Shown here piece after piece: positions 2,032 to 17,001 of a DNA stretch of 17,001 nt. Location of the stretch: assembly GCA_964508365.1 (NCBI GenBank), contig CAZDTP010000051.1, positions 14,176 through 31,176 on the forward strand, given 5' to 3'. The translations under genes and the position numbers were made by a program. The notes below the pieces were generated by a model that searched no databases, had not been told where the DNA came from, and worked only from the letters and a program-made list of their open reading frames with translations. Every line of letters starts with the position of its first letter. The first letter of the stretch is position 1. The DNA is from an uncultured archaeon (lineage in GTDB: Archaea; Asgardarchaeota; Lokiarchaeia; Sigyniarchaeales; SOKP01).

Positions 2032-3324
2032 ATGAGAAGTAATCTCAAATTACAAATAGGAGTTGATATCGGAAAAATTTCAGATTTAGATCAGGTAAAG
2101 TCGATCAACGCTCGACAAATTAAACTCCTTCAAGAAAGTGGAATTAGCACGGCAGAAGCCCTTGCGATGTCTCCGCACAATATCATAGGGGAGATAGACG
2201 GTTTAGGGGACAAAACAGCGAAGAAATTAATTTGGAACGCTCGAAACGCACTTGGAATGACCGAGTTCGTAGCAGCGGAAGACATAGACGAGAACACCGA
2301 GTACATTACGACCGGTTCTTCTGAGTTAAACAGAATATTGGGCGGTGGATTCCAAACAGGAAAACTCACTGAGGTATATGGCCCGTTTAAAAGCGGAAAA
2401 ACAAATTTAGCTCATACAATTGCTGTGACCATTCAGCTTTCGAAGAAAAAAGGCGGTCTTGGGTCGGCAGTAGCCTATATAGATACCGAAAACACCTTTT
2501 CGAAAGAAAAGATTAAACGGATCGCAAAAAGGTTCGGACTCGACCCAAAGAAAGTCTTATCGCAGATTTTTCACGCCAGAATTTATTCTTCTGACCACCA
2601 GATGCAGATGATTCAAAAGGCAGAAACTTTATGTAAAACAAGGAATGTGCGACTTATTGTAGTGGACAGCTTAATGGCTTTGTTAAGGGCTGAATATGTT
2701 GGCATTGGAATGCTCGCCCGCCGTCAGGGAATTCTCAACAACATGATACATGGGCTTTCGCGGGTTGCAGAGACTTACAATTGCGCCATTCTTCTAACCA
2801 ATCAAGTTTCGACCAAGATGATGGGTATGTTTTCAGCGGACGACGCGATTGGCGGAAACATCGTGGCACATGGCTGTCACTTTCGTGTCATGTTTAAAAC
2901 TAAAGGGTTCTCGTCCAATAATTCGTTAAAGCGGAGAGCGATAATAGTAGACGCCCCTGATTTGCCACCAGAAGAAGCAGAGTTCTATATTACGAGCGTA
3001 GGCATTGCCGACACCGAAAAAGGAGAAATTCCCGAAGCAAAAGGGTTAGATTTCGAAGTAGAAGAGCTATACGAAAAAGAAGAAAATGAAGAGATTCAGG
3101 TAGACGAAATTACCGAAGATGCAACTAATTCAGAGGAATATTCTTTAGTAGATGTGAAGGGGATCGGGGATGGCACCGCAAAAAATCTTGTTAAAAACGG
3201 TATAATATCGATCCAAGACTTGCTAAATTCCGATCCTGAGACGCTCGCCACTAAGATTAGCGGAATCTCTTCTAAAATGATTAATGAATGGCAAGCGAAC
3301 GCGAAAGCTCTTTTAATCGCTTAA
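2032..3324 (+). CDS. radA: RadA/Rad51-family recombinase (probable paralog) with an acidic linker and an extra C-terminal HhH domain
   Basis: N-terminal HhH domain, FxxA motif (FVAA), ITTGS...LGGG, Walker A GPFKSGKT, YIDTENTF, Walker B LIVVDS, LARRQ, TNQV, GGNIVAH, DAPDLP. About 100 extra C-terminal residues. Confidence 0.93.
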   Translation: MRSNLKLQIGVDIGKISDLDQVKSINARQIKLLQESGISTAEALAMSPHNIIGEIDGLGDKTAKKLIWNARNALGMTEFVAAEDIDENTEYITTGSSELNRILGGGFQTGKLTEVYGPFKSGKTNLAHTIAVTIQLSKKKGGLGSAVAYIDTENTFSKEKIKRIAKRFGLDPKKVLSQIFHARIYSSDHQMQMIQKAETLCKTRNVRLIVVDSLMALLRAEYVGIGMLARRQGILNNMIHGLSRVAETYNCAILLTNQVSTKMMGMFSADDAIGGNIVAHGCHFRVMFKTKGFSSNNSLKRRAIIVDAPDLPPEEAEFYITSVGIADTEKGEIPEAKGLDFEVEELYEKEENEEIQVDEITEDATNSEEYSLVDVKGIGDGTAKNLVKNGIISIQDLLNSDPETLATKISGISSKMINEWQANAKALLIA

Positions 3325-3489: not shown

Positions 3490-3609
3490 TTAAATTTCCT
3501 TAATTCTTGTGAAAAAGTCTTTTGAAGGAGTTATATCTGCTTTTGTTAAGACTTCAGCACATTGAGATCCGGAGGGTCCCGCTCCTGATATTATCACATC
3601 ATGCATCAT
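3490..3609 (-). pseudogene. Remnant of an FAD-dependent oxidoreductase (geranylgeranyl-reductase-like N-terminus)
   Basis: Hand translation MMHDVIISGAGPSGSQCAEVLTKADITPSKDFFTRIKEI*. DVIISGAGPSG is the beta1-GxGxxG dinucleotide-binding start; the frame stops after 39 codons. Confidence 0.75.
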
Positions 3610-3988: not shown

Positions 3989-4372
3989 ACAACACGAAAT
4001 TATATTCTTCCTCTTAAACTATGAGACCACTTTAGATTAGAAATTTTTCCCGAAGTAAATTGATCGATTTGGAGCAAAAATCGTCGAAATTCAGTCGCTT
4101 AATTTGAATATTTATTATTTTAATTTTGTAATTTATGCGATAATTGCCAATTAATTCCAATTATTATTGTACTTACAGTTATAATTATCAAATCTTAATT
4201 TATAAAATTATATAAATAAAACTAAATTTTAATGAAAATTAAAAAATATCCTTCAAATTTAATTTTTTTTTTCATTGAATTAGGTGCAACTAGATTTAAA
4301 TATGATAATTACTTAGTTAATATTTAGAATTGGAATAGATATGAACATAAACAAATTTTTAGGGTGATTTAA

Positions 4373-4933
4373 ATGGAATTTCTTCCTATGTTAGAGTTTG
4401 GTTGGTTGAATGGTTGGTTATTACTTGTTATATTTTTCGGCATTTTTGGTATAATAGTCTTGACAAGTCCTAAAGAGGTCATCGCAAGGCTTTATGAGGA
4501 AGAAGAATGGAAAAAAAGAGGAATTCTCCTTAAAATAGCTGGATGGTGTGGAGCATTATTTTTATTCCTTCTATTTATACTTACTCCGCTAAACATTGGA
4601 TCAATTGAATTTTTAATTGGGATAATATTATTCTCTATTGGTACAGTAGGGATGGCAGTGGCACTCGTAAATTTTAAAAATGCGCCTTTAAATAAGCCAA
4701 TAGCATCTGGGTTATATCGAATATCTCGAAATCCTCAGATGTTGACTATCTATGTCGCATTTTTAGGGATTTGTTTAGCGATTGGATCAGGGATTGTACT
4801 AATATTACTTAGTATTTCTATAGTTGGTGGCCATTTTCGCATTCTAAGTTAGGAGAGAAAGCTTTTAAGGCAATACGGCGAATCTTACGAATTGTACAAA
4901 AAGAAAATAGCGAGATATTTTTTATTCTTCTAA
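4373..4933 (+). pseudogene. ICMT/PEMT-family integral-membrane methyltransferase interrupted by an in-frame TAG at 4850-4852
   Basis: GGTGA RBS at about 4364-4368; several TM helices; GLYRISRNPQ motif; the frame continues past TAG as ERKLLRQYGESYELYKKKIARYFLFF* (TAA 4931-4933), matching the family tail EE..L...yGe.Y..Y....R. Confidence 0.85.
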
Positions 4934-4962
4934 TAAGAAAATTTCTTTCGGTCTCATATATT

Positions 4963-4978
4963 AAGAAAAAAAAAGAAT
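4963..4978 (-). terminator. Oligo-T terminator for the minus-strand 350-aa gene
   Basis: Plus-strand A run just beyond the stop at 4988. Confidence 0.45.
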
Positions 4979-4987
4979 AGAATGTAG

Positions 4988-6040
4988 TTAATTAGTTCGC
5001 AGGCTAACAGAATCTTTTTTTCGCCTAACCGCTCCAAAAACTACTAGAATAGATAGTATTCCTCCGGCAGAAAGACCAAAAGCAAGCGTCCATTCCATCG
5101 GTACGTAATAATATCCGCTCGTAGTTTCGTTAGTAATTGGATCGGTTCCGTTGTTAGGGTCAGGGTCGGGAATAGTTCCGTTATTAACAGTGCTAATTTG
5201 ATAATCTTCTGCTATAGCGTAGGCAATGTTTGCTACTTCGACCTGGCAATGAATCGTAATTTTTACCGAGTAAATTCCCTCAATAGATGTTCCAAAGTCA
5301 AAATGCATCATCGTTCCAACGTTTCCTATTGTTTCGTTTTGGTAGATCGTAAACTTAATTTCTTCAGGATCGGTTACTTCATATTCCACCTTTACTTCAT
5401 TTGCAACAGTTAGGCCACCAATAGCCGAGACTCTTGCGAGGTAAAACTTGTAAGACCAATCGATTTTAAGAACGGTGTTATGCTCAATCACCATCCCGCT
5501 GGTGAATTTATTAACCTGATATAGCTCCAATCGTTCTAGATATTTTAACGCTATCATATCGTATAAGCACTTATCTTGCGAGTCGAACGATATTTTTACA
5601 TGTAAGTTCAAATTAAGCGCACATTCAACGGAAAAGATAAAACTATAATTCCCCGCAATTGCTGTACCAAATGGAATTTCGAACCAATCGTCGTCTTGAG
5701 AAATGTTCACTTCCGTTTTGAACACTTCGTACACGTCCAGTACCGGATCGATGATGGTCACGTTGATTTCGCAATTGTGAGGAGTAACAATCTCAAGTAA
5801 CACATAATAATTGACCTTTTCGATCAGATATAAGTCGTCGAATTGTAAGGTGTCATTAGGAGCCAGAAAGGTAAATACTTTGTCGACTAAATTTACTTCG
5901 GAGCTTGTTTTTGGTATTTCTCCAGAACCAAGAACCTTAGGAATTCGAGAATTATCTCCTAATAACCCAACAATAAGTCCTCCTATCAATAAAAAACTGA
6001 TAATTACGACTTTTTTAGTATTATACTTGCTAATAGCCAT
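4988..6040 (-). CDS. Secreted or surface protein with two beta-sandwich-like repeats and a C-terminal TM anchor, 350 aa
   Basis: N-terminal hydrophobic segment; internal repeat IIDP...IPFGTAIAGNYSF / VTDP...FDFGTSIEGIYSV; DPDP linker; TM followed by RRKK. Confidence 0.8.
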   Translation of the reverse strand: MAISKYNTKKVVIISFLLIGGLIVGLLGDNSRIPKVLGSGEIPKTSSEVNLVDKVFTFLAPNDTLQFDDLYLIEKVNYYVLLEIVTPHNCEINVTIIDPVLDVYEVFKTEVNISQDDDWFEIPFGTAIAGNYSFIFSVECALNLNLHVKISFDSQDKCLYDMIALKYLERLELYQVNKFTSGMVIEHNTVLKIDWSYKFYLARVSAIGGLTVANEVKVEYEVTDPEEIKFTIYQNETIGNVGTMMHFDFGTSIEGIYSVKITIHCQVEVANIAYAIAEDYQISTVNNGTIPDPDPNNGTDPITNETTSGYYYVPMEWTLAFGLSAGGILSILVVFGAVRRKKDSVSLRTN

Positions 6041-6296
6041 ACACCTGCAATTCTTTGAATTCAGAGATTAGTAATTTCACCTTCGAACAAATGTCGTAGT
6101 CTATACAACTAAAGCATGGCTGGTCCGACCAAAAATACGCGGGTTGATTCATCCTCTCCACGATTAAAAGCGGAAAGCTACTTTTTGGGCATTCTAACGC
6201 AGAATTACTAATCTTTCCCTTCTTCGGGATCGGATACGAAACACCACAAGCATCGCATTTCACGAATCGCTTGTAGTTATTTGTCTTGTACATCAT
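6030..6296 (-). CDS. Small Cys-rich metal-binding protein, 88 aa
   Basis: Six Cys: CDAC, ECPK, CFSCIDYDIC. Overlaps the start of the downstream gene by 11 nt, consistent with translational coupling. Confidence 0.75.
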   Translation of the reverse strand: MMYKTNNYKRFVKCDACGVSYPIPKKGKISNSALECPKSSFPLLIVERMNQPAYFWSDQPCFSCIDYDICSKVKLLISEFKELQVYGY

Positions 6297-6516
6297 TAAT
6301 GAGCACTGGCAAGATGGGCAAGTGCCTATTTCCTCAATCTGTTTCAGTTAAAACACCGTAAATTTATTTTTACTTTATGGTAAAAATCGATACTTATAAA
6401 GGAAAAAGCATTTTTTAAAAAAAAATTAGTAATTACGGGAACTGATCTCACTTAAAAGGTACGGAATTATTTTCTAACCTTGCAATTCTCTGAAAACGCC
6501 CTAATTTATTTTTTTT

Positions 6517-6547
6517 GGAAGGTTAGGATTATAATTCCTATCCTTTC
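6517..6547. promoter_or_regulatory. Imperfect inverted repeat (12-bp arms, TTATAAT spacer); possible operator or RNA hairpin
   Basis: ggaaggttagga-ttataat-tcctatcctttc; arms match 10/12; followed by a T tract on the plus strand. Confidence 0.4.
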
Positions 6548-6716
6548 TTTTTAATTAAACAAATTCTAATACTAAAAATATCATGTATTAAACAATATCA
6601 CATTTATGGTATAGTAAAAAAAGGTTTTTTTACCCTTATAACAGTCCGCAACTATCATCATAAAATTAATAGATTAGTTTTTTTCTTTAAAAATACAAGA
6701 ATAATATTCCACTATT

Positions 6717-6941
6717 ATGGTATTATTCGATTATTTTGAAGATGTGCTTGGAGGATTCGAGTTTTGGATTGCCTTTGGCTCGCTCGTGGGAATCTTTGGA
6801 CTCTTAATCGGTATTATATTAGTAATATGGGGCGGAAGTCGGCTTCGCTACAAGATGCTAGGAGTTATAATCGCTTCATTTGTGTTGATTGCGATTTGCG
6901 GGTTCGATACCGGTTTCAAGTACTTCAGGATTTTTAGATAA
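6717..6941 (+). CDS. Small two-TM membrane protein, 74 aa
   Basis: Two hydrophobic helices joined by a basic loop (SRLRYK). Confidence 0.75.
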   Translation: MVLFDYFEDVLGGFEFWIAFGSLVGIFGLLIGIILVIWGGSRLRYKMLGVIIASFVLIAICGFDTGFKYFRIFR

Positions 6942-6956
6942 AAAAATATTTTTCTT

Positions 6957-7340
6957 TTAATAATAATGGTATCCTTGGGGTGGTTGACCCCCTCCAAACA
7001 CTAAACCTAAAAATTCGAAAGGAATTCCGGTAAGAAAAGCGCCGATCCATAGTAATAACGCACTAAGCAACATTGATTTAACATTGAATTGGTGGAAGAA
7101 GATTTTGAGGATGTTTATTACGAGCAATGCGCTCCCGATCGTGAGGAAAATTTGTCCTACGCTCACAAAAATGGTTTTGAAAACCGTACTTGTCATATAA
7201 CGCAAGTTGGATCCGAAAAAAGGCACGACTATTGCTACGAACCCTAATATTCCGAGAAATATTAAAAAAGTGTGGTTTGCCTTGCGTTGTTTTCGAAGGA
7301 TTATGATTCCGTCGCTATTTTTAGCCATAGATTTTATCAC
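6957..7340 (-). CDS. Hypothetical membrane protein with 3-4 TM helices, 127 aa (true start may be the ATG at 7328)
   Basis: Basic N-terminus, hydrophobic segments, GGGQPPQGYHYY tail. Confidence 0.75.
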   Translation of the reverse strand: MIKSMAKNSDGIIILRKQRKANHTFLIFLGILGFVAIVVPFFGSNLRYMTSTVFKTIFVSVGQIFLTIGSALLVINILKIFFHQFNVKSMLLSALLLWIGAFLTGIPFEFLGLVFGGGQPPQGYHYY

Positions 7341-7449
7341 TTGATAAGATAAATTTGGTTTTTATCTCATATTCAAATCAAATCTTTATAAAGAAAAAGT
7401 CTGGAACACTCGATTTTTCCTTTTTATATGCTTCTTTGCTCTAGAATGT

Positions 7450-8550
7450 ATGGGAGTTAAGCTTCAAGATTTAGTGATCCGAAACACTATAGATTTTTCC
7501 AAACTCGCAGGAAAGATTATAGCAGTAGATGCTCCGAATGTAATAATGAGTTTGTTTAACTTCGCCCGTAAAAACCATGATGGCTCCCATGCGGGACTCA
7601 TTCTAGACCGCACCCAAAGACCGATATCTCACCTTTATGGCTTGCTTTTCAGGACGAACTTTTTCTATTCTAAGAAAATTTTCCCAATTTTTTGCTTTGA
7701 CGGGCTCGACTCTGACCTTAAAAAGCTAAAAACTAAAGATAGGCTCAACGACTTCTTATTTACAGAAAAATTATACCGATCGTTAATCCAATCGGGGAAA
7801 AGAGAGAATGCGAAACAAATTGCTTTATCCCGAGAGTATATGTGGCCCAATATTATTAAAGAATCTAAGCAATTACTAGGGGCATTAGGATTACCATACA
7901 TAAACGCTCCCGCTTCGGCAGAGTCGCAATGCGCTCAGCTTGTTAAAAATAGAGTAGTTCATTACTCTAACTCGCAAGATTTCGACTCACTTTTGTTTGG
8001 TTGCCCGCGGGTAATCCAAAACCTCTCGAAGTCGTTAAGAAGGAAGGTGCAGGGTCGCTGGTCGTATCAAAAAATCACTCCGGTCAAGATCGATCTTAAA
8101 GAAAACCTAAAAAGGTTAGGAATCGATCAGTTTCAATTGGTAGATATGGCGCTCCTGATTGGAACCGATTACTTTCCAGGTATAAAAAATATTGGACCAA
8201 AACACGCCTACAAATTCATAAAAAAGCACCGATCCATAGAAAATGTGATTAAAGAAGAAAAAGAAAATTACGATTTTTCTGAATTGAGTTCCGAAAACAT
8301 TGCAAATGTAAGAAAAATTTTTTTACTCCCCGAAGTCTTAGAGGATTACCCAAATTTGAGCTGGAATTACCCTAGCGAACACCAAACGCAAAACTTATTA
8401 TGCGAAGTTCACCATCTCAATCGAGAACGGGTGGAAACCAACCTGAAAAAGTTAGCCTCTAATTACGAAAAGTGCCAGACATTTTTCTCCAACAAAACGA
8501 GAAATCCCTCTAAAAAACAAGAAACCTTCGACTCTATTTTTTATACCTAA
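7450..8550 (+). CDS. fen: Flap endonuclease 1 family nuclease (divergent)
   Basis: MGV start, AVDA, SHLYGL, FDG..LK......R, SQDFDSLLFG, GTDYFPGIKNIGPKHA (H3TH motif), degenerate C-terminal PIP box QETFDSIF. Confidence 0.92.
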   Translation: MGVKLQDLVIRNTIDFSKLAGKIIAVDAPNVIMSLFNFARKNHDGSHAGLILDRTQRPISHLYGLLFRTNFFYSKKIFPIFCFDGLDSDLKKLKTKDRLNDFLFTEKLYRSLIQSGKRENAKQIALSREYMWPNIIKESKQLLGALGLPYINAPASAESQCAQLVKNRVVHYSNSQDFDSLLFGCPRVIQNLSKSLRRKVQGRWSYQKITPVKIDLKENLKRLGIDQFQLVDMALLIGTDYFPGIKNIGPKHAYKFIKKHRSIENVIKEEKENYDFSELSSENIANVRKIFLLPEVLEDYPNLSWNYPSEHQTQNLLCEVHHLNRERVETNLKKLASNYEKCQTFFSNKTRNPSKKQETFDSIFYT

Positions 8551-8553
8551 AAA

Positions 8554-8567
8554 TTTTATTTTTCTTT
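8554..8567 (+). terminator. T-rich terminator-like tract after fen
   Basis: ttttatttttcttt after the stop at 8550. Confidence 0.4.
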
Positions 8568-8640
8568 ATAAAGTCTCAATGAATCGTTTATATGGTAATT
8601 AATATTCAATACCCACAAAACTAACGAAATTGAGAGAAGT

Positions 8641-9249
8641 ATGGCAAGATCAACGAACAATGCGATTTTTCTGCAAAACAGTTTACGAGCCTATAGAAGA
8701 GCTCCAAAGGAAGATTTAAACAAGGAGAAAGTGCTAAACTACTTTTTTAGGTTAGAAAGTTTTACGAATGATCGAAACGAATACAAAAATTTAACGCCTT
8801 TGCTCGTTGGGAACATTGCGAAGGAAACAAACCTACCTAATTCCGTAGTGTTAAACACTGCTTTGGAGTTTTTAACCGAAGCTACTCAATTCAGTCATAC
8901 TTTAAGTTTAGGGCTCATATCGTGGGGCACAGGAGAGAAAAGCGTGTTGCGGCAAGCGAAATTTTACCTGAGAAAGGTTTATAAGATCGCCCCGGTGTTC
9001 GATTACTCCCGAGCGATTGCTAACTTAGAAATTTTACATACTCTTTTAAAGAAAGTCTTTTATTGGCCTCGCATCACCACTCAGCTTGCCTTGACTATTT
9101 TTGTGACCGACCGAAACGACCCAAATATAACGAAAAATGAGTATATTTTGCAAAAAAATTTAAGAACTTTTTGCGCATGCTCCGCTTACGCCTTCCACAT
9201 GGCTCGAAAGAAGCTTAATATTGACAAGACAGGAAGCGTTAGTATCTAA
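8641..9249 (+). CDS. Hypothetical protein, possibly with a TFB/cyclin-like helical fold, 202 aa
   Basis: IAKETNLPNSVVLNTALEFL and QLALTIFVT...ILQKNLRTFCACSAYAFHMARKKL resemble helices of the TFB cyclin repeat. The resemblance is by eye only. Confidence 0.7.
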   Translation: MARSTNNAIFLQNSLRAYRRAPKEDLNKEKVLNYFFRLESFTNDRNEYKNLTPLLVGNIAKETNLPNSVVLNTALEFLTEATQFSHTLSLGLISWGTGEKSVLRQAKFYLRKVYKIAPVFDYSRAIANLEILHTLLKKVFYWPRITTQLALTIFVTDRNDPNITKNEYILQKNLRTFCACSAYAFHMARKKLNIDKTGSVSI

Positions 9250-9253
9250 CCTG

Positions 9254-9300
9254 TTTTTCTATTTATTTTATTATTATTTATACTTGAAGTTTATTTCTTT
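9254..9300 (+). terminator. T-rich terminator-like tract
   Basis: Several T runs after the stop at 9249. Confidence 0.4.
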
Positions 9301-9370
9301 CTTAGATTTTTTCTTTAAATAATCAACTTCTTATTTTTACATAATAGTAAATTAATAAGCAGTTTTTATC

Positions 9371-10297
9371 GTGAGCAACTCAGTAGACGAATTATACCAA
9401 AAGTTATTGGACCTTGGTATGTCAGAAGAAGAGCTAGAAAAAAAAGTCAAGAATAAAGTAGAAGAATACGGCGGTTTCATGTCGGAACAGGGAGTGTTGT
9501 TTGTAATAGCCAGAGAAAACGGGCTTAATTTGAGATCCCCCGATATTGACGATTATCTTTACGACGAGTTAGAAGAAGAAGTCGATTACGACGAGTTCAC
9601 AATAGATATTTCGGACGTTAGAGAAGGGATGAGCAACATCGTGCTGTTAGGTAAGATTTTGAGCACGCAAAAAATTAGAGAATTTATACGGAAAGACGAA
9701 TCTATTGGAAAAGTGAGTTCTTTCTTACTTGGTGACCTAACCGGAACCGTTAAAGTTGTGCTATGGGACGAGCGAGCCGATAGCGTTAATCACGAATCTT
9801 TTAAACCAAACGAGCTTGTACGAGTTATCGGCGGGTATTCAAAACTTGGACAAAACGAAGCTATAGAAGTTCACCTTGGAAGAAAAGGCACATTAATTTT
9901 CGCTCCTGAAATTAGCGATAAGAAGAAAGAGCGGTTAGACACTATTACAAATAATAGTTCAGAAAGAAAAACGCCCAATAGTATTTCTTTAAAGCCTTTA
10001 GGACAAGCCATCCAACAAAACAAGTTCATTAGCATCGTTAAAGGAACCGTTCGAATCGAAGATTTTAGAGAATTAGAGTTAAAATCAGGCGATAGATCGT
10101 TTTTACTCACGCTGTTATTAGAAGTCGAAGACTTTTCCATCAGGGTGAAAGTGTGGGGCATGAAAGCGGTAGAATGCTTGAAAATAGTGAATGATGGGGA
10201 TTATATTTCTATTACCAACCTAGTTGTTAAAGAGAACAAATACACCGCAGAGAAGGAACTTGTTTTCACGAAAAATTCGAGTTTACTATTAATATAA
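9371..10297 (+). CDS. rpa: RPA-like ssDNA-binding protein: DUF2240-like N-terminus, acidic linker, two OB folds
   Basis: GTG start; ELEKKVKNKVEEYGGFMSEQGVLFVIARENG; ISDVREGMSNIVLLGKI...LGDLTGTVKVVLWD; second OB fold SIRVKVWG...GDYISITNL. Confidence 0.85.
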   Translation: MSNSVDELYQKLLDLGMSEEELEKKVKNKVEEYGGFMSEQGVLFVIARENGLNLRSPDIDDYLYDELEEEVDYDEFTIDISDVREGMSNIVLLGKILSTQKIREFIRKDESIGKVSSFLLGDLTGTVKVVLWDERADSVNHESFKPNELVRVIGGYSKLGQNEAIEVHLGRKGTLIFAPEISDKKKERLDTITNNSSERKTPNSISLKPLGQAIQQNKFISIVKGTVRIEDFRELELKSGDRSFLLTLLLEVEDFSIRVKVWGMKAVECLKIVNDGDYISITNLVVKENKYTAEKELVFTKNSSLLLI

Positions 10298-10478
10298 TTA
10301 ATTAAGTCTACTCTCGTTGGTTGGTCAAATATTCCCAATACATGATATACTGGGATTAAGAAGGCGGATTGAGTTAAATGTAGACGTCTAAATCTTATTT
10401 AGAGTTAAATTTTTATAGAATCTTTGCGTATATATTGATTTAATGAAATCTAAATTTAAAATTAGAGATTGATAACAT

Positions 10479-13403
10479 ATGAAAAATAAATGTAAGATAT
10501 ATTTACTCCTATTTCTTGTATTAATACCTTATTTTATTCTAATTGGTGATATAAACCTTTTATCCGAAGAGAATGAAAAAAATATTTTAAAGCAAAAGAA
10601 TATCGTAGGGGGGCTAAAAACTTCAAAATCATGGAATTTATCACCTTTTATCATCAGCGTTACTGGAGGGGGCAATGGTACTTGGGCTTGGGCAAGTAGC
10701 AACGATTGGTGTAATGGCTCTGGAACAATCAATGATCCTTATATCATTGAAAATGTAACTATCGATGCGAGTGGAATATTAGGTACAAGCTGTATTACAA
10801 TCAATAATTCTGAAGTCTATTTTGTAATTCAAAATTGCTCGTTAAGAAACTCAGGTAATGATGCTATGGATGCAGGGATTAAATTACTAAATACTAGCAA
10901 TGGAAGAATTCAAAACAACAATATTTCGAGAAATCTAGGAAATGGAATTTATTTAAATGGTTCACATCAGAATACAATCAAAAAAAATATTATTGAACAT
11001 AATAAAATTGGTTGTAATCTCTACGATTATTGCGAGTATAATACCATAACCCAAAACAATATCAGCAATAATCAAGAGCACGGTATTTACTTTCACTTTT
11101 ATAATGATTATAATAACATAAGTTCAAATACAGTGCAGTTTAATGGAAAATTTGGTCCCTTTCATGGAATTTTTCTTGATGGCTGGTATTGCCAATTTAA
11201 TTTAATAGATAAAAATGTAATAAAAAACAATACAGGTGACGGAATTCGATTAGACACTTATAGTCATAATAGTACCATCGCTGAAAATATTATCGTGAAT
11301 AATTCTTGGGCGGGAATAACATTAACTTCTTCTTCTGAATGTGAAATCTCTGAAAATCAAATAATTAATAATTTTCAATATGGCATCTTGATTTCAGAAT
11401 GTGATCGTGTAAATATAATAGTGAATATAATCAAGTTCAATGGCGATTTAGTTGATTCTTATGGTATTTACTCTACTGGTAGTGACTACCTCAATATTTC
11501 TGGAAACGAGTTTCTGAACAATTACAATGGTATTGGGCTGAGATTTTGCGATAGTTGTAATGTTTCGAATAATTTTCTAAAAGATAATGCTCTGTATGGA
11601 ATATTCGTTGAGCATCTATCTGATTTTAATTACATCTATGACAATTTATTGCAAGATAATGTAAGAGCAATTACGATTTATGACAATAGCAACAATAATG
11701 AGATTTATAATAATAAAATCATAAAAAGTAGTAGTTCAAGTATAGAAATAAATAACAAATGTAATCTAAACTTAGTTTATAATAACTCTCTTATTCGAAA
11801 TGGTTATGGTATCGATATTAATAACGATTGCGACCTTAATAATTTAACAAGTAATGTTATCAAGGAAAGCACTTTCAGCGGTGTACGAATTGTTAGTGGC
11901 TGTAACGAAAATCTTTTATACGGGAATTATTTTGTTCTTAATATTCTAAATGCTATCAATGATGAATCCGATACTCGATGGAATACAACAGAAACCGGTA
12001 ATTATTGGTCTAACTATACTGGTTATGATTTAGATGGTGATGGTTTTGGAGATATACCTCATCCCATTATTAGCTATGGAAATGACTCCCTTCCTATTTA
12101 CAGTAATATTCCAAATATCTACATTGATGAATTTACTGATTATGATTGGAAATGGGCAAAGCAACAATATTGGTGTAATGGCTCAGGAACAGAAGAGGAT
12201 CCCTATATAATAGAAAATAAACTCATCAAAAAAGAATGGTTGAGCAATTGTATTGAAATTAGAAACTCTGAGGTTCACTTTACTATCATTAATTGTACTT
12301 TAACGGCAAAAACATCATATTTCTCTAGTATTGTTCTATATAATGTTAAGAACGGTAAGATTAGTCATAATAAAATAACACAGAATAATATAGGGATTCA
12401 ATTAGACAAGTGTGATCAAATTGATATTTCAAATAACACCATCAAGGATAATAATATTGGCGTTAATTTAATTTGTAGCGATTTCAACTATGTTACCAAT
12501 AATACAGTCCAATATAACAATTTTGGTTTGTATATATGGCAAAGTAATAACAATTTGTTCAATGATAATCTTCTACTTAATAATAATCAATGTATCCTTG
12601 AACTTGACTGCGAGAATAATGTTTTTGAAAATAATATTTGTGACCCTAAACCTTTAGAAGAATTATGCGTTGAAATAGTTGACCAAATATTCTCTTCTTC
12701 AGCCTATAATTTCACTTTTTATGTATATAATGATACTAATTATGCCATGGAATTCGCAACTATTCAGATATGGTGGAATGGAACTGATGTGTCATCTGAT
12801 ATCATTAATCTTGGTTCTGGTTTCTATTTTATATCTTTAGAACCTATTACCATAAATCTAGGTGAAAGCTCAATCCTTTTGAATTTAACTATTTCTGCTT
12901 CAGGATATTCAGATAAATACTTTGAAACTTATCTTGCAATACATCCATGCGAATTAATTGATTTGATGTTTCTTGAAATTATAGAACAGATTTTTACTGA
13001 AGAACATTTTAATATCACATTTTCAATAAGAAATGGGACAGGTCAGGGGATTGATTCTGCAGTCCTTGTTATATCATGGAATGGAACTGATGTGTCATCT
13101 GATATCATAAATCTAAGTGGTGGTTTCTATAAGATAACCCTAACACCAATAATAGTAAATCCAGGAGATGATCCCATTATTTTGGGTATTAATGTTTCAG
13201 CTGCGAATTATAGTGATATGTCTTATCAACTAGAATTATCAGTAGATCCAGATACAATCAGTAAAGAAACAATTACTCCCTCACCCGGAGAATTTCTGAT
13301 TTTTCTTATCGTAATAATCGGAGTTTCGAGTGGAGGTGTTTTGGTTGCTCTAGTGATTATTATTTTAAGAAAGAGAGGATCTAAAGAATTCGTACAATCT
13401 TAA
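10479..13403 (+). CDS. Large surface protein: signal peptide, two NosD/CASH-type parallel beta-helix modules, two C-terminal beta-sandwich repeats, TM anchor
   Basis: Many Asn-rich repeats (I..N.I..N..GI.L); WCNGSGT..DPYIIEN leader occurs twice; GNYWSNY...DLDGDGFGD NosD-type ending; two 101-aa WNGTDVSSDIINL repeats; TM plus LRKR. Confidence 0.9.
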   Translation: MKNKCKIYLLLFLVLIPYFILIGDINLLSEENEKNILKQKNIVGGLKTSKSWNLSPFIISVTGGGNGTWAWASSNDWCNGSGTINDPYIIENVTIDASGILGTSCITINNSEVYFVIQNCSLRNSGNDAMDAGIKLLNTSNGRIQNNNISRNLGNGIYLNGSHQNTIKKNIIEHNKIGCNLYDYCEYNTITQNNISNNQEHGIYFHFYNDYNNISSNTVQFNGKFGPFHGIFLDGWYCQFNLIDKNVIKNNTGDGIRLDTYSHNSTIAENIIVNNSWAGITLTSSSECEISENQIINNFQYGILISECDRVNIIVNIIKFNGDLVDSYGIYSTGSDYLNISGNEFLNNYNGIGLRFCDSCNVSNNFLKDNALYGIFVEHLSDFNYIYDNLLQDNVRAITIYDNSNNNEIYNNKIIKSSSSSIEINNKCNLNLVYNNSLIRNGYGIDINNDCDLNNLTSNVIKESTFSGVRIVSGCNENLLYGNYFVLNILNAINDESDTRWNTTETGNYWSNYTGYDLDGDGFGDIPHPIISYGNDSLPIYSNIPNIYIDEFTDYDWKWAKQQYWCNGSGTEEDPYIIENKLIKKEWLSNCIEIRNSEVHFTIINCTLTAKTSYFSSIVLYNVKNGKISHNKITQNNIGIQLDKCDQIDISNNTIKDNNIGVNLICSDFNYVTNNTVQYNNFGLYIWQSNNNLFNDNLLLNNNQCILELDCENNVFENNICDPKPLEELCVEIVDQIFSSSAYNFTFYVYNDTNYAMEFATIQIWWNGTDVSSDIINLGSGFYFISLEPITINLGESSILLNLTISASGYSDKYFETYLAIHPCELIDLMFLEIIEQIFTEEHFNITFSIRNGTGQGIDSAVLVISWNGTDVSSDIINLSGGFYKITLTPIIVNPGDDPIILGINVSAANYSDMSYQLELSVDPDTISKETITPSPGEFLIFLIVIIGVSSGGVLVALVIIILRKRGSKEFVQS
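12774..13108 (+). repeat. Perfect 32-bp direct repeat (12774-12805 and 13077-13108) within the beta-helix gene
   Basis: tggaatggaactgatgtgtcatctgatatcat twice, 303 bp apart and in frame. Confidence 0.95.
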
Positions 13404-13409
13404 ATTCAT

Positions 13410-13425
13410 CTTTTTTTTTCTATTT
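13410..13425 (+). terminator. Oligo-T terminator after the beta-helix gene
   Basis: T9 at 13411-13419. Confidence 0.55.
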
Positions 13426-13452
13426 GTTCATGGTTTCTTGTGTTTAAATAGG

Positions 13453-13686
13453 TTTAAGGAATTAGAGTTGAAGTCGGGCGATAAATCGTTTTTGCTCACC
13501 ATGTTCATAGATGTGGAAAGCTTTACGATAAAAATGAAAGCGTGGGGTATGAAAGCAGTAGAATGCTTGAAAATCGTAAATAGTGGAGATTTTGTTTCAA
13601 TAACTAACTTAGCTGTTAAAGAGAACAGATACACATCAGAGAAAGAGCTTATATTCACGAAAAATTCGAGTGTATCGTTGGTCTAA
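13453..13686 (+). pseudogene. Orphan 3' fragment of an rpa gene (C-terminal OB fold); ORF-track call 13438-13686
   Basis: Homologous to rpa codons 232-308; only a TTG start with no RBS, and located directly after a terminator; reading frame intact. Confidence 0.8.
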
Positions 13687-13817
13687 CTATAAGTGTTAGA
13701 GACAAGATCTTTATAGTTCCTAAGAATTTCCCTCTTATTTTTTGTTTAAATATCTCACATTGTTCAAATCCTAAAATATTTTAGTGTTAAAATATTACCA
13801 AAATCAATCTGAAGATC

Positions 13818-14483
13818 GTGATAACTAAACAAAAATTCAATTTGTACCAGGTCCTTAGGCTAGAAAAGCTTAACAATCTCTTTTTAAAGCGGCTGGGGAG
13901 AATTCTCTTTTACAGTAGTGTTTGCTACATTATTTTGTTAGTCTCGAATGTTTTATTGTCTTCTTTTTTCGGTTTTTCACTCTTTGTAAATTTCATTAGC
14001 GATTTAGGTAGTATCAGATTTATTCCTTTTCCTTATGTTCATAATTTAATCTGCTTATTTGGAGGTATGGTAAGCCTTCCAATTAATTTTTATGTAAGGA
14101 ATAAGTTACGTATCGTATACAAAACTTCGAAGTATTCTATAAAGTTTGTTGATTTCGGCGTGGCTTTTGGAATAATTGGAAACATTGGATACATACTTTT
14201 GGGAGTGTTTAGTTTAGATAGGGCTGGTCCAGGAGACATCTATCATAGTATCATTGCTTCTATTTCGTTTGTCGGTTATATTTTATCTATTTTCTTTTTT
14301 AGTTTGAACATCGTCCTATCACACAACTGCAAGTTGAAACATTTGGGCTTTTTTGGGCTAGTTGTTCCCATCGCTTTGCTTTTCACCTATTGCATCCTTA
14401 CCATCCCTCTTATCGAATGGTTTTTGTTAAGTTCTATTTTGTTGTTTTTGCTTTTATTGAACTATTATGTGTTCAAATTTTAG
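13818..14483 (+). CDS. DUF998-like multi-pass membrane protein
   Basis: GTG start; FISDLG motif, G..GN.GY..LGVFSLD, YHSIIASISF; 5-6 TM helices. Confidence 0.75.
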   Translation: MITKQKFNLYQVLRLEKLNNLFLKRLGRILFYSSVCYIILLVSNVLLSSFFGFSLFVNFISDLGSIRFIPFPYVHNLICLFGGMVSLPINFYVRNKLRIVYKTSKYSIKFVDFGVAFGIIGNIGYILLGVFSLDRAGPGDIYHSIIASISFVGYILSIFFFSLNIVLSHNCKLKHLGFFGLVVPIALLFTYCILTIPLIEWFLLSSILLFLLLLNYYVFKF

Positions 14484-14584
14484 TCGTCAAGCTAAAACTG
14501 AAATTCCATTAAGGATTATTTTGGTAGGATATTGTAATTTCAAGGTGTAGAAAAGATTCCTTCCTTTCTCAGATTATCCATGAC

Positions 14585-15076
14585 TTACTCTCTCACTATC
14601 TTGTTCATCAAAATCGCGCTCATAAGAACTAAGCCACCTCCTATAAGATTAATAACAAAACCATACCCAATAACAAAATAATTAAAAAGAAAGGTTTCAC
14701 CAAGCATGATGATCTTAAAAAGTATCAACCATAGTACTGTTAAAACAAGAGTCAAAATTGCTAATAATGAAAAGTATTTTCTCATCTTCTTTGTGAAATT
14801 TTGGGTTCTTCTAAATTCTAATAATAATTTTGCATTTTTAACTGCAAATACAATAATTATAATGGAAAATATTATCCCATATATCGAGATATTTGATAGC
14901 ATACCCATGTATTCTCCGCTTACATCTATCCAAAATCCCCACATCCAAATATAACCATTAATCCCTGTGGGAAAATCTGGATTTTTAGGTATCATGATGG
15001 GTAAAAAGACCAAAGAAATCATTATGATTACGGTCCCAATTGAATTAAAAATCCAAAATTTACTGAAATTAACCAT
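14585..15076 (-). CDS. Hypothetical four-TM membrane protein, 163 aa
   Basis: Four hydrophobic segments; GAGTGA RBS-like sequence upstream. Confidence 0.75.
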   Translation of the reverse strand: MVNFSKFWIFNSIGTVIIMISLVFLPIMIPKNPDFPTGINGYIWMWGFWIDVSGEYMGMLSNISIYGIIFSIIIIVFAVKNAKLLLEFRRTQNFTKKMRKYFSLLAILTLVLTVLWLILFKIIMLGETFLFNYFVIGYGFVINLIGGGLVLMSAILMNKIVRE

Positions 15077-15157
15077 TTCTTATCACTCTAAAAAAAAATT
15101 TTTTTTTAACTTTATATTATCTATCTTCTTTTTTACCTAAAAAGGATTGTAATTAGG

Positions 15158-15856
15158 TTAGTTTTTAGCGCTATTTTCATTATTTTCCTCTGGCTTCATT
15201 TTTGCGAGATATTCGAGGTATCCTTCATTTTTCTCTTTTTCTTTCTTGGAAAGATTGTGAAAATCGGGATGTATTATGAAAAACAGAATTATTGGCAAAA
15301 CAAAGAAACTTAAGATATATACAATAATAATAGTATTTTCGAATAACATAAAATTATGCGCATCGTGTTCTTTAATACTATGAGTATAAACGAGATTATA
15401 ATTCACAGTGCCATTCTGTGGATTACTGTTCAATTGATAGTTTAAATCAACGGAGCCTTGACAAGTTAAATTGTCTCCAAATGATAATTCAATAGTTCTT
15501 GAGGATATTATCTTGGGCCAGTAGACTAAGGTACCATTATATGTGTATAGATTTATTGCATTCTGATAAATATCACAGTCAATTCTTTCAATTTCCACAT
15601 CTGTTACACTTGCATTAAATGTGAAATCAATTTCCACATAATATAAATATGCAACCGGACTTAATAAGCCTGAATTTAACTCTACATTCATAGCAACATT
15701 CACATCAACATCACCGTCAATAGTTTGATTTTTAATCTTGTTAAATCCAAAAAAATAATCCATCATGCCTAGTAGCGGATTCAAACACAATAAAACTACA
15801 ATAGTTAGAATTGTAAAAACTATAAATATAAAATTAGATTTTTTAGACTTTACCAT
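15158..15856 (-). CDS. Hypothetical protein with two TM helices flanking a beta-rich extracellular domain, 232 aa
   Basis: GGAGG RBS upstream; N- and C-terminal TM segments; charged tail. Confidence 0.8.
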   Translation of the reverse strand: MVKSKKSNFIFIVFTILTIVVLLCLNPLLGMMDYFFGFNKIKNQTIDGDVDVNVAMNVELNSGLLSPVAYLYYVEIDFTFNASVTDVEIERIDCDIYQNAINLYTYNGTLVYWPKIISSRTIELSFGDNLTCQGSVDLNYQLNSNPQNGTVNYNLVYTHSIKEHDAHNFMLFENTIIIVYILSFFVLPIILFFIIHPDFHNLSKKEKEKNEGYLEYLAKMKPEENNENSAKN

Positions 15857-15938
15857 CTTTCTCCCTCCAGTTTTTGTAAAACAACAATTTAGAATACAAA
15901 TACATTTCTATATATTGTATTAAGAAAGGAGTATTTTA

Positions 15939-16055
15939 ATGTTGTGTTCTGAGAACAAAAGAGCTGAGAAAATTGTGATTTACAGTATGAATCGTGGTTG
16001 CTCCAGAAATCGTGAATTTTTGCTTTTGGGTAAATTGTGTAAAAAATTAGTATAG
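15939..16055 (+). CDS. Possible 38-aa small ORF
   Basis: AAGGAG 7 nt before the ATG; MLCSENKRAEKIVIYSMNRGCSRNREFLLLGKLCKKLV*. Could be chance. Confidence 0.2.
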   Translation: MLCSENKRAEKIVIYSMNRGCSRNREFLLLGKLCKKLV

Positions 16056-16072
16056 GAAAATAAACTTTGCTT

Positions 16073-17001
16073 TTATGTATTGGAAAACACTTGAATATTC
16101 AAAGTGGGCCAACTGTTATCTCCGTTTAAAAAAGAAGGATCAGTTTTGGGTTGAGTTTGATTAAAAATATCAGTAGCTTTCACATTTATTGTTATATAAC
16201 CTCGTTCGGTAGCTACTAAATTTATTACCCAGAAAACCCAAACATTGTCAAAATCAACGGTTTTAACTATTTCTGCTTGATGCCAGTCAAGTCCATCGTT
16301 GAGGGTATATTCTACTTTTGATATTCTAGTTCCTCCATACGCTGCGCCACCTATTAAAATTGAATCTCCGATATTTACCGGATGATAATTGTTAGGGAAA
16401 AAAAATTTTGAATCTACTAGCATACGAGGCGAAGTATCCCAACCACGATCATCCCAAAAATCCTTTAAAGGCATATCAATTACCTCAATTTCGATTACCC
16501 AAGCTGGTTGTTTGGCTCCATAATAACCAGGATTTATTACTCTTAAAGGAAATCCCTGAATTGGAGGTAAAGTTAAATTATTGAGGTAAAGCGCTCCGAT
16601 AACTGTATTGTTCATTAGCTGCTCCATTGTGTGGGTTGCATAATAACCATCTGCCGCGTAATATTTAACTCCAGTTGCATTACTCTTTAATCCAAGTGTG
16701 TTTATTAGGTTATAAATGCTAAATCCCGTCCAATTAGCCGTGGAAATTAACGAACCATCAGAAGGGTTTCCAATGCATTCTATTGTTAATGGAAATTCAA
16801 TTAATGGTAGAGCTCGCAACTCAGAAAGACTATAATTTGTAGGATTTTCGATGCAACCGGTTATCTTTAATTCGTAACTATGCTCGTCAATCTCAGGAAT
16901 GACTCCGATATTAGCAACAAAATAATCCTGGGTCTTAGTATAAAAATCGGGAAAGTTAATTAGATCGTCTAAATCATTGTTATTATTTGGAACCGGATAA
17001 A
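16073..17001 (-). CDS. Sulfite-oxidase-family molybdopterin-dependent oxidoreductase with a Mo-co dimerisation-type C-domain; 5' end lies outside the window
   Basis: The frame is open from 16999 (YPVPNNNNDLDDLINFPDFYTKTQDYFVANIGVIPEIDEHSYELKITGCIENP...), so the track start at 16819 is internal. Mo-ligand Cys in TIECIGN; NWTG; GFPLRVINPGYYGAKQPAWV; GAAYGGTRISKVEY...GLDWHQA. Confidence 0.88.
   Translation of the reverse strand, partial: YPVPNNNNDLDDLINFPDFYTKTQDYFVANIGVIPEIDEHSYELKITGCIENPTNYSLSELRALPLIEFPLTIECIGNPSDGSLISTANWTGFSIYNLINTLGLKSNATGVKYYAADGYYATHTMEQLMNNTVIGALYLNNLTLPPIQGFPLRVINPGYYGAKQPAWVIEIEVIDMPLKDFWDDRGWDTSPRMLVDSKFFFPNNYHPVNIGDSILIGGAAYGGTRISKVEYTLNDGLDWHQAEIVKTVDFDNVWVFWVINLVATERGYITINVKATDIFNQTQPKTDPSFLNGDNSWPTLNIQVFSNT

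Follow-up and report, generated by a model that had tools for sequence, protein, structure and literature searches.

Relic of a native gene tail marks the probable import of an RPA-like allele and a surface-protein gene in an uncultured lokiarchaeon

Introduction

Why does a stretch of archaeal DNA carry the end of one gene twice, with a long unrelated gene between the two copies? The question is raised by a piece of an uncultured lokiarchaeal genome (assembly GCA_964508365.1, contig CAZDTP010000051.1, positions 14,176 to 31,176), referred to below as the window; coordinates are those of this window of 17,001 nt, and its sequence is denoted WIN in pairwise comparisons. The gene encodes an RPA-like protein of 308 aa and is designated rpaL-A. 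Its 3′ end is called tail A, and the second copy, which lies beyond a gene for a predicted cell-surface protein (the cargo gene), is called tail B. Labels beginning with L and G denote the metagenome contigs and genomes compared. The source names of homologues assign the organism to Lokiarchaeota/Promethearchaeota.

The answer suggested by the present analysis is that tail B is probably the scar of a single import, in which about 4.4 kb of foreign DNA replaced about 1.0 kb of native DNA. The evidence comes mainly from a closely related contig that has the same neighbourhood with one intact rpa-like gene and no cargo, and from the level of divergence along the window.

Two copies of the gene tail

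Tail A (10064–10297) and tail B (13453–13686) align without gaps and share 184 of 234 nt, 56 of 77 aa and the stop codon. Their differences fall at codon positions 1, 2 and 3 in the proportion 13/10/27. Directly upstream of the two copies and past the stop, identity is at background (0–8 of 15 nt). A repeat search of the window returned this pair as the sole long direct repeat (D1, 237 nt, 78%), and HMMER matched tail B to the full 308-aa protein with E = 7e-35. The tail repeat ending at the stop codon, first described in a reading of the DNA made without database searches (the sequence-only reading), was thus reproduced by alignment, repeat search and HMMER. The HMMER match stretches to residue 219, and residual homology upstream of tail B was considered; the nucleotide identity of 18/45 is near the chance level of AT-rich DNA, and this candidate was rejected.

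Only one open reading frame (ORF) of at least 60 aa lies between the tails, at 10479–13403 (974 aa). Its Beta_helix and NosD matches agree with the beta-helix gene that the sequence-only reading had placed there alone. The same reading had found no integrase and no terminal repeats: Pfam detected no integrase or transposase in any ORF of the window, and the repeat search revealed no terminal repeats in the window. A 14-nt near-repeat (9254–9267 and 13415–13428) roughly flanks the insert, but it was read as a T-rich terminator-like sequence, other genomes showing only a T-run at the first site.

An empty-site relative and the identity of tail B

The contig L092 (JGI metagenome contig Ga0307376_10004955, 12.1 kb) carries an intact rpa-like gene of 307 aa, followed after 135 bp by the gene o13818, with no cargo between them. 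The flanking genes of L092 and of the window are 88–99% identical at the amino acid level. Positions 13453–17001 of the window align with L092 7685–11229 at 98.1% over 3549 nt, and the alignment starts exactly at 13453. Within it, tail B and the tail of the L092 gene agree at 233 of 234 nt, with one nonsynonymous and zero synonymous differences. The phylogenetic trees placed tail B as sister to L092 with 100/100 support, and the approximately unbiased (AU) test rejected a clade of tail A and tail B (p = 0.0005). Duplication in situ followed by divergence was discarded on the same AU result (p = 0.0005), and because the distance to the native allele is 0.4% for the relic and about 20% for the full gene.

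Since tail B matches the intact gene of L092 at 233 of 234 nt and continues into a right flank of 98.1% identity, it is, on these sequence comparisons, a native remnant, a relic of the native rpa-like gene. A displaced native tail at the far end of the insert is what the sequence-only reading had proposed. It had also anticipated strains with rpa directly before the next gene, and this arrangement was found in L092 and, in addition, in G008:C20 and G021.

Two further differences between the sequences lie away from the tails. A segment of L092 (983–2031, about 1.05 kb) has no counterpart in the window, at 3546–3549. At window positions 4049–4969 there is about 0.9 kb, including a PEMT-like ORF (4373–4852), against 67 bp in L092.

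Extent and origin of the foreign segment

The features needed for the following comparison are listed below.

8641–9249, plus strand: o8641, the upstream gene (202 aa, no Pfam match), with the proposed left homologous crossover in its 3′ part at about 8975–9040.
9000–13452, plus strand: putative imported segment of about 4.4 kb, comprising the end of o8641, an intergenic region with a 26-bp insertion, the entire rpa-like allele, the beta-helix gene and a 49-bp trailer.
9371–10297, plus strand: rpaL-A, the intact 308-aa RPA-like gene, probably an imported allele, with an N-terminal helical domain and two OB folds.
10064–10297, plus strand: tail A, codons 232–308 and the stop of the putatively imported allele, covering the end of strand β1 and strands β2–β5 of OB fold 2.
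10479–13403, plus strand: cargo gene for a 974-aa predicted cell-surface protein, assigned from Pfam (Beta_helix, NosD) and its translation.
13404–13452, plus strand: T-rich 49-bp trailer past the cargo gene, the putative final foreign bases ahead of the abrupt junction, with no L092 homology upstream of 13453.
13453–13686, plus strand: tail B, the native rpa-like relic, codons 232–308 and the stop, 233/234 nt identical to the L092 tail and without most of strand β1 of OB fold 2.
13687–17001, no single strand: native right flank, collinear with L092 (the empty-site relative), with o13818 (13818–14483) and three genes on the minus strand.

The label DUF998, previously given to o13818, was not sustained, as this gene has no Pfam match at E ≤ 0.01.

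On the left side, WIN and L092 are 97–99% identical in the blocks 5174–7340, 8391–8690 and 8794–8973. Inside o8641 the identity is 97% at 8794–8973 and 84–86% from 8974, while the identity of L092 and G048 stays at 96–97%. Differences specific to the window start at about 9010, and the alignment is collinear through this ancestry switch (about 8975–9040). From about 8975 to 10297, WIN and L092 are only 70–88% identical, whereas L092 and G048 remain 85–99% identical, and the window shows no special affinity to L092 or G048 as compared with G002 or G047.

The divergence extends over the whole of rpaL-A. Its product is 77.7% identical to that of L092, and the nucleotide identity is about 80% over the full length and 80–82% in the 5′ part. 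For WIN and L092, the synonymous divergence (dS) amounts to 0.77 over the 5′ part and 1.02 over tail A, compared with 0.23 between G048 and L092 and 0.51 between G047 and L092. In the trees, the 5′ part and tail A of the window are both left unplaced near the base of the close clade. No change of ancestry was detected at codon 232 within the current gene, the level of identity being continuous. The ratio of nonsynonymous to synonymous divergence (dN/dS) between the WIN and L092 alleles is about 0.14–0.15. Because this ratio is so low (about 0.14), the two alleles are best read as having diverged as working genes in separate lineages; the conservative and synonymous character of the differences between the tails therefore says nothing on selection for tail B.

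Phage 21 and the e14 element integrate in the 3′ end of E. coli icd, where the incoming diverged tail keeps the gene intact and the old tail is displaced past the insert. The sequence-only reading had applied this model to the locus, with a native 5′ part grouping with tail B, a foreign tail A, and a crossover at GAATTAGAGTT that supplied only a replacement 3′ end and swapped only the last OB fold. These predictions did not hold: divergence in the 5′ part is as high as in tail A, the whole gene is exchanged, and the switch occurs not at codon 232 but some 1 kb to the left, within o8641.

On the right side, positions 10306–13452 have no counterpart in L092 or G048, in line with the earlier suggestion that the cargo arrived with foreign DNA. 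Homology to L092 and G048 begins exactly at 13453, and the preceding 49 bp are unmatched. In comparison with L092, about 1.0 kb (L092 about 6640–7684) is gone and about 4.4 kb (about 9000–13452) stands in its place. Four points are demonstrated at the level of sequence: an empty site exists, tail B belongs to the native allele, the current gene is diverged evenly throughout, and the right boundary is abrupt.

The FEN1 gene further left (7341–8390) is mostly 84–95% identical to L092 between blocks of 97–99%, and WIN, L092 and G048 are about equidistant there. This patch looks like a separate homologous recombination.

The proposed event

It is likely that the ancestor had the arrangement of L092, with o8641, an intact rpa-like gene and o13818 135 bp further on. 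The donor would have been a less closely related lineage within the same Lokiarchaeal group, and the incoming DNA would have carried, besides a complete divergent rpa-like allele, the beta-helix gene and the end of o8641. At the left end, homologous recombination may have taken place inside o8641, at about 8975–9040; at the right end, 49 bp past the cargo gene, the foreign DNA would have been fused, with no homology at the join, to codon 232 of the native rpa-like gene. The loss would have amounted to about 1.0 kb of native DNA (codons 1–231, the promoter region and the end of o8641), against a gain of about 4.4 kb. The cell would thereby keep a working rpa-like gene, in the form of the foreign allele, and gain a surface protein, while the last 77 native codons would persist as a promoterless, incomplete OB-fold fragment. 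We infer the direction of the event, its single step and a mechanism with one homologous and one illegitimate end, similar to homology-facilitated illegitimate recombination (HFIR). Judging by the near-isogenic empty-site contig, the event is recent. An integrative or viral element was also considered as the source and rejected: no recombinase and no terminal repeats are present, and the viral contigs of IMG/VR yielded no relative of either the rpa-like protein or the cargo.

Several points weigh against this reconstruction. The structure of the locus is known from assembled contigs alone. No donor was found, in that none of 5.8 billion proteins is more than 80% but less than 100% identical to the current allele. 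The AU test does not reject the 5′ part of the window gene as sister to the clade of L092, G048 and L090 (p = 0.235); the case for a foreign origin therefore rests on the level of divergence and the lost specific affinity, not on topology. Finally, the left flank has a mosaic structure of its own, with an identity to L092 of about 91% in the FEN1 block; the left boundary is therefore approximate, and there may have been more than one event.

Alternative explanations

The same final structure would arise in the reverse direction, if rpaL-A and the beta-helix gene were resident and the right flank had given way to an L092-like fragment starting at codon 232, joined homologously at its right end and illegitimately at its left. 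The identity of the right flank to L092 (98.1%) is somewhat above the average of the left flank (about 93–99%, mosaic), as this scenario would have it. It requires an extra event to place an rpaL-A of about 80% identity between blocks of 97–99%, whereas a single import covers the divergence, the cargo and the relic together, and the reverse direction is regarded as unlikely.

It is also improbable, and somewhat more so, that a cassette already formed in a donor (rpaL-A, cargo and relic) was moved by double homologous recombination, with the right crossover at the relic start or in the downstream gene. A 4,640-nt contig from ENA bears a copy of the cargo protein with 98% identity, which could place the cassette in more than one lineage or strain, and crossovers in the conserved 3′ third of the gene are seen in other lineages (L089 versus L091, described below). 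However, the relic differs from the L092 tail at 1 of 234 bases, so that nearly all of it must be native, and the scheme merely moves the origin of the relic to an earlier time.

An insertion at the repeat start, of the icd/e14 or the Campbell type, would have brought in only tail A and the cargo and left the 5′ part native. Its appeal lies in the order of gene, cargo and displaced tail, in the 11-mer GAATTAGAGTT common to both repeat starts, and in the single-crossover integration of circularised fragments, which produces partial gene duplications in E. coli (PMC3240628). It is very unlikely here, given that the 5′ part is about 80–82% identical to the native allele (dS 0.77), that the switch lies in o8641 and that there is no integrase.

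There is hardly any probability that tail B is an expressed and selected small gene, with an OB-fold fragment modulating RPA or serving as a spare part. Its frame is open, with no stop or indel, a TATA-like TTTAAATA lies at 13443–13450, and an in-frame ATG at 13501 opens a called ORF of 61 aa; but a match of 233/234 nt to the intact gene of a sister strain means that intactness needs no selection. The barrel of the AlphaFold2 model would be left without most of β1, or without β1 and most of β2, and no conserved stand-alone orthologue occurs at the locus in 42 genomes of the genus and 28 metagenome loci. In-situ duplication, as noted above, is rejected (AU p = 0.0005).

An assembly chimera or strain-mixture artefact is extremely improbable: although the genome is a metagenome-assembled one of 149 contigs with 3.65% contamination, and the related bins G008 and G017 look composite, the longest exact run common to the tails (about 18 nt) is too short to mislead an assembler, and the relic-specific 61-aa ORF was found on 2 contigs (NCBI, JGI and Logan sources), the cargo protein on 3, and rpaL-A on 4 of different lengths. 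A JGI contig of 15,266 nt encodes an rpa-like protein identical to that of the window.

The RPA-like gene and its cargo

The 308-aa protein contains the Pfam domains tRNA_anti-codon (an OB fold) and CDC24_OB3, both above cut-off. The family profile matched the Replication factor A chains 8aa9 and 8aaj in the PDB (E = 1.6e-15, residues 15–196). In the AlphaFold2 model (mean predicted local distance difference test score, pLDDT, of 75), a helical domain at the N-terminus is followed by two beta-barrels; in the second barrel, β1 is formed by residues 219–236 and β2–β5 by residues 242–307. Judged by the profile matches and the model, the protein is RPA-like, with OB-fold domains of the single-stranded DNA (ssDNA)-binding type, and ssDNA binding is predicted.

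The gene had earlier been labelled rpa and treated as a core gene. This label has to be corrected, because a 580-aa RPA conserved across the order is encoded on another contig of the organism (C25); the 308-aa gene, which is not the principal RPA, is a genus-level paralogue that has two OB folds. In the order-wide comparison, only genomes of the genus (22/24 sampled) and related metagenome contigs yielded the 308-aa form, always beside FEN1. The genus-wide synteny runs from RadA through FEN1, o8641 and rpaL to a variable gap and o13818. The size of this gap varies between about 100 bp and 3.5 kb, and the genes in it are unrelated from genome to genome, for example a predicted 310-aa ORF in several of them.

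The genomes G008 and G017 have four and three copies of rpaL, respectively, and the G008 copies are 72–77% identical to the rpaL of the window at the amino acid level. The synteny with FEN1 and o8641 is kept at all four G008 loci and at one of the three in G017. Multiple copies as a sign of a mobile gene were considered and rejected; in view of this synteny and of the 8–9% contamination, composite bins are the more likely cause, and G008 and G017 are probably mixtures of related species.

The cargo protein carries a hydrophobic signal or anchor at the N-terminus and a transmembrane anchor at the C-terminus. It contains two right-handed beta-helix (NosD/PbH1) modules and, in its C-terminal part, two repeats of about 100 aa. 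Its Pfam matches are strong (Beta_helix 2e-69, NosD 5e-56), and its best homologues in the 42 genomes of the genus are 45–47% identical. A 50-nt internal repeat of the gene (10705–10754 and 12169–12218, 82%) encodes the WCNGSGT..DPYIIEN motif that opens each beta-helix module.

Also within the window, the RadA homologue (2032–3324) has an HhH_5 match at residues 372–421, past the ATPase core, which is unusual for RadA/Rad51.

Exchange at the RPA-like gene in other lineages

The contigs L089 and L091 are 60–76% identical over most of the rpa-like gene and about 86% identical from about codon 225–232 through the shared downstream gene. In L089 2634–4576, the tail and a downstream 310-aa ORF on the opposite strand are about 80–90% identical to those of L091. 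The tails of the two contigs are sisters in the trees (100/98), and their 5′ parts are not. On this sequence evidence, L089/L091 is a case of ordinary homologous crossover, located in the conserved 3′ third of the gene and without a relic. The sequence-only reading had regarded the gene as an anchor for swapping downstream content. Exchange of this kind finds some support in L089 and L091, though the crossover there leaves no relic. L089 also has tandem o13818 homologues (4732–5391 and 5529–6188), 64% and 70% identical to the window protein at the amino acid level.

An orphan tail of the rpa-like gene is present at an unrelated chromosomal locus (Fae/Hps, TBP) in L109:5476–6051, and the same in L066:6230–6445 and L065:2485–2700. 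In L109 it forms a 72-aa ORF, 76% identical to tail A at the amino acid level, directly after a 114-aa fragment that matches positions 463–563 of a pyruvate-formate-lyase-like profile; the homology reaches upstream to about codon 217–229, with a 2-nt insertion. The starts of the L109 orphan (about 217–229) and of the window relic (232) are close, and a breakpoint hotspot was considered; two points are too few for such a claim.

A nucleotide self-BLAST of the genome returned three 3′-end relics with a common stop, including the studied pair, two of them on the contig of the window. The other pairs are C51:5386–5486 with 13104–13204 (79% nt) and C1:163220–163328 with 163556–163664 (77% nt). In both of these pairs, a short downstream ORF repeats the 3′ end of a long ORF and keeps its stop position; the C51 pair lies about 1 kb before the window start on the same contig.

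The L089/L091 breakpoint, the conflicts between the trees of the 5′ part and the tail, the L109 orphan and the second tail relic on the contig hint that the rpa-like locus could be a recurrent exchange point in Lokiarchaeia, where divergent alleles and variable cargo are swapped and the swapping itself is perhaps favoured. This generalisation is doubtful, and we hold it to be unlikely. If it were true, virus conflict could be one force behind the swapping, and compatibility with the nearby RadA and FEN1 could be another.

The locus itself has several implications. It offers a rare clean before-and-after pair for gene gain in an uncultured Asgard archaeon. It suggests that Lokiarchaeal lineages diverged by about 20% at the rpa-like gene exchanged DNA recently, and that a conserved replication or repair gene may be replaced in place by a foreign allele, with a surface-protein gene riding along. 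Annotators of these genomes would do better to treat a short intact ORF that repeats the end of a neighbouring gene as a relic than as a new small gene.

Comparison with known systems

The locus resembles the integration of phage 21 and e14 in icd by the displaced native tail beyond the insert and by the intact gene. It differs in that the insert carries no integrase or other recombinase, no att core and no element genes, and in that the 5′ part is not native but also foreign, which makes the event an allele replacement.

A second parallel is given by the orphaned 3′ regions at rhs, contact-dependent inhibition (CDI) and type VI secretion system (T6SS) effector loci, such as the arrays of Vibrio cholerae (PMC5361080). 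There, as in the window, an incoming module pushes the old 3′ piece downstream as an orphan, and a conserved upstream region serves as the anchor. Unlike those loci, the one described here has no toxin–immunity logic, a single relic instead of an array and a replacement of the entire gene, and its orphan has no partner gene that would maintain selection.

The closest correspondence is to HFIR, in which recombination is homologous at one end and illegitimate at the other and insertion is coupled with deletion (PMC3240628). The process is known in Streptococcus pneumoniae, Acinetobacter baylyi and Pseudomonas stutzeri (PMC3240628), and the same model has been applied to the orphaned 3′ gene regions at T6SS/rhs loci (PMC5361080). 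The present locus shares with it homology at one end (in o8641), an abrupt other end (at 13453), an insertion coupled with a recipient deletion of kilobase size, and the absence of a recombinase or mobile element. What sets the locus apart from the known cases is its host, an uncultured Asgard archaeon, the excess of the insert (about 4.4 kb) over the deletion (about 1.0 kb), and the presence in the insert of a homeologous copy of the overwritten gene. HFIR junctions are further marked by 3–10 bp of microhomology at the illegitimate end, and here the join is judged from the recipient side only. The locus reveals no new integration mechanism and is not a new integration system; it is a recombination scar of a known kind, for which the window and L092 provide an unusually clear view of the states before and after.

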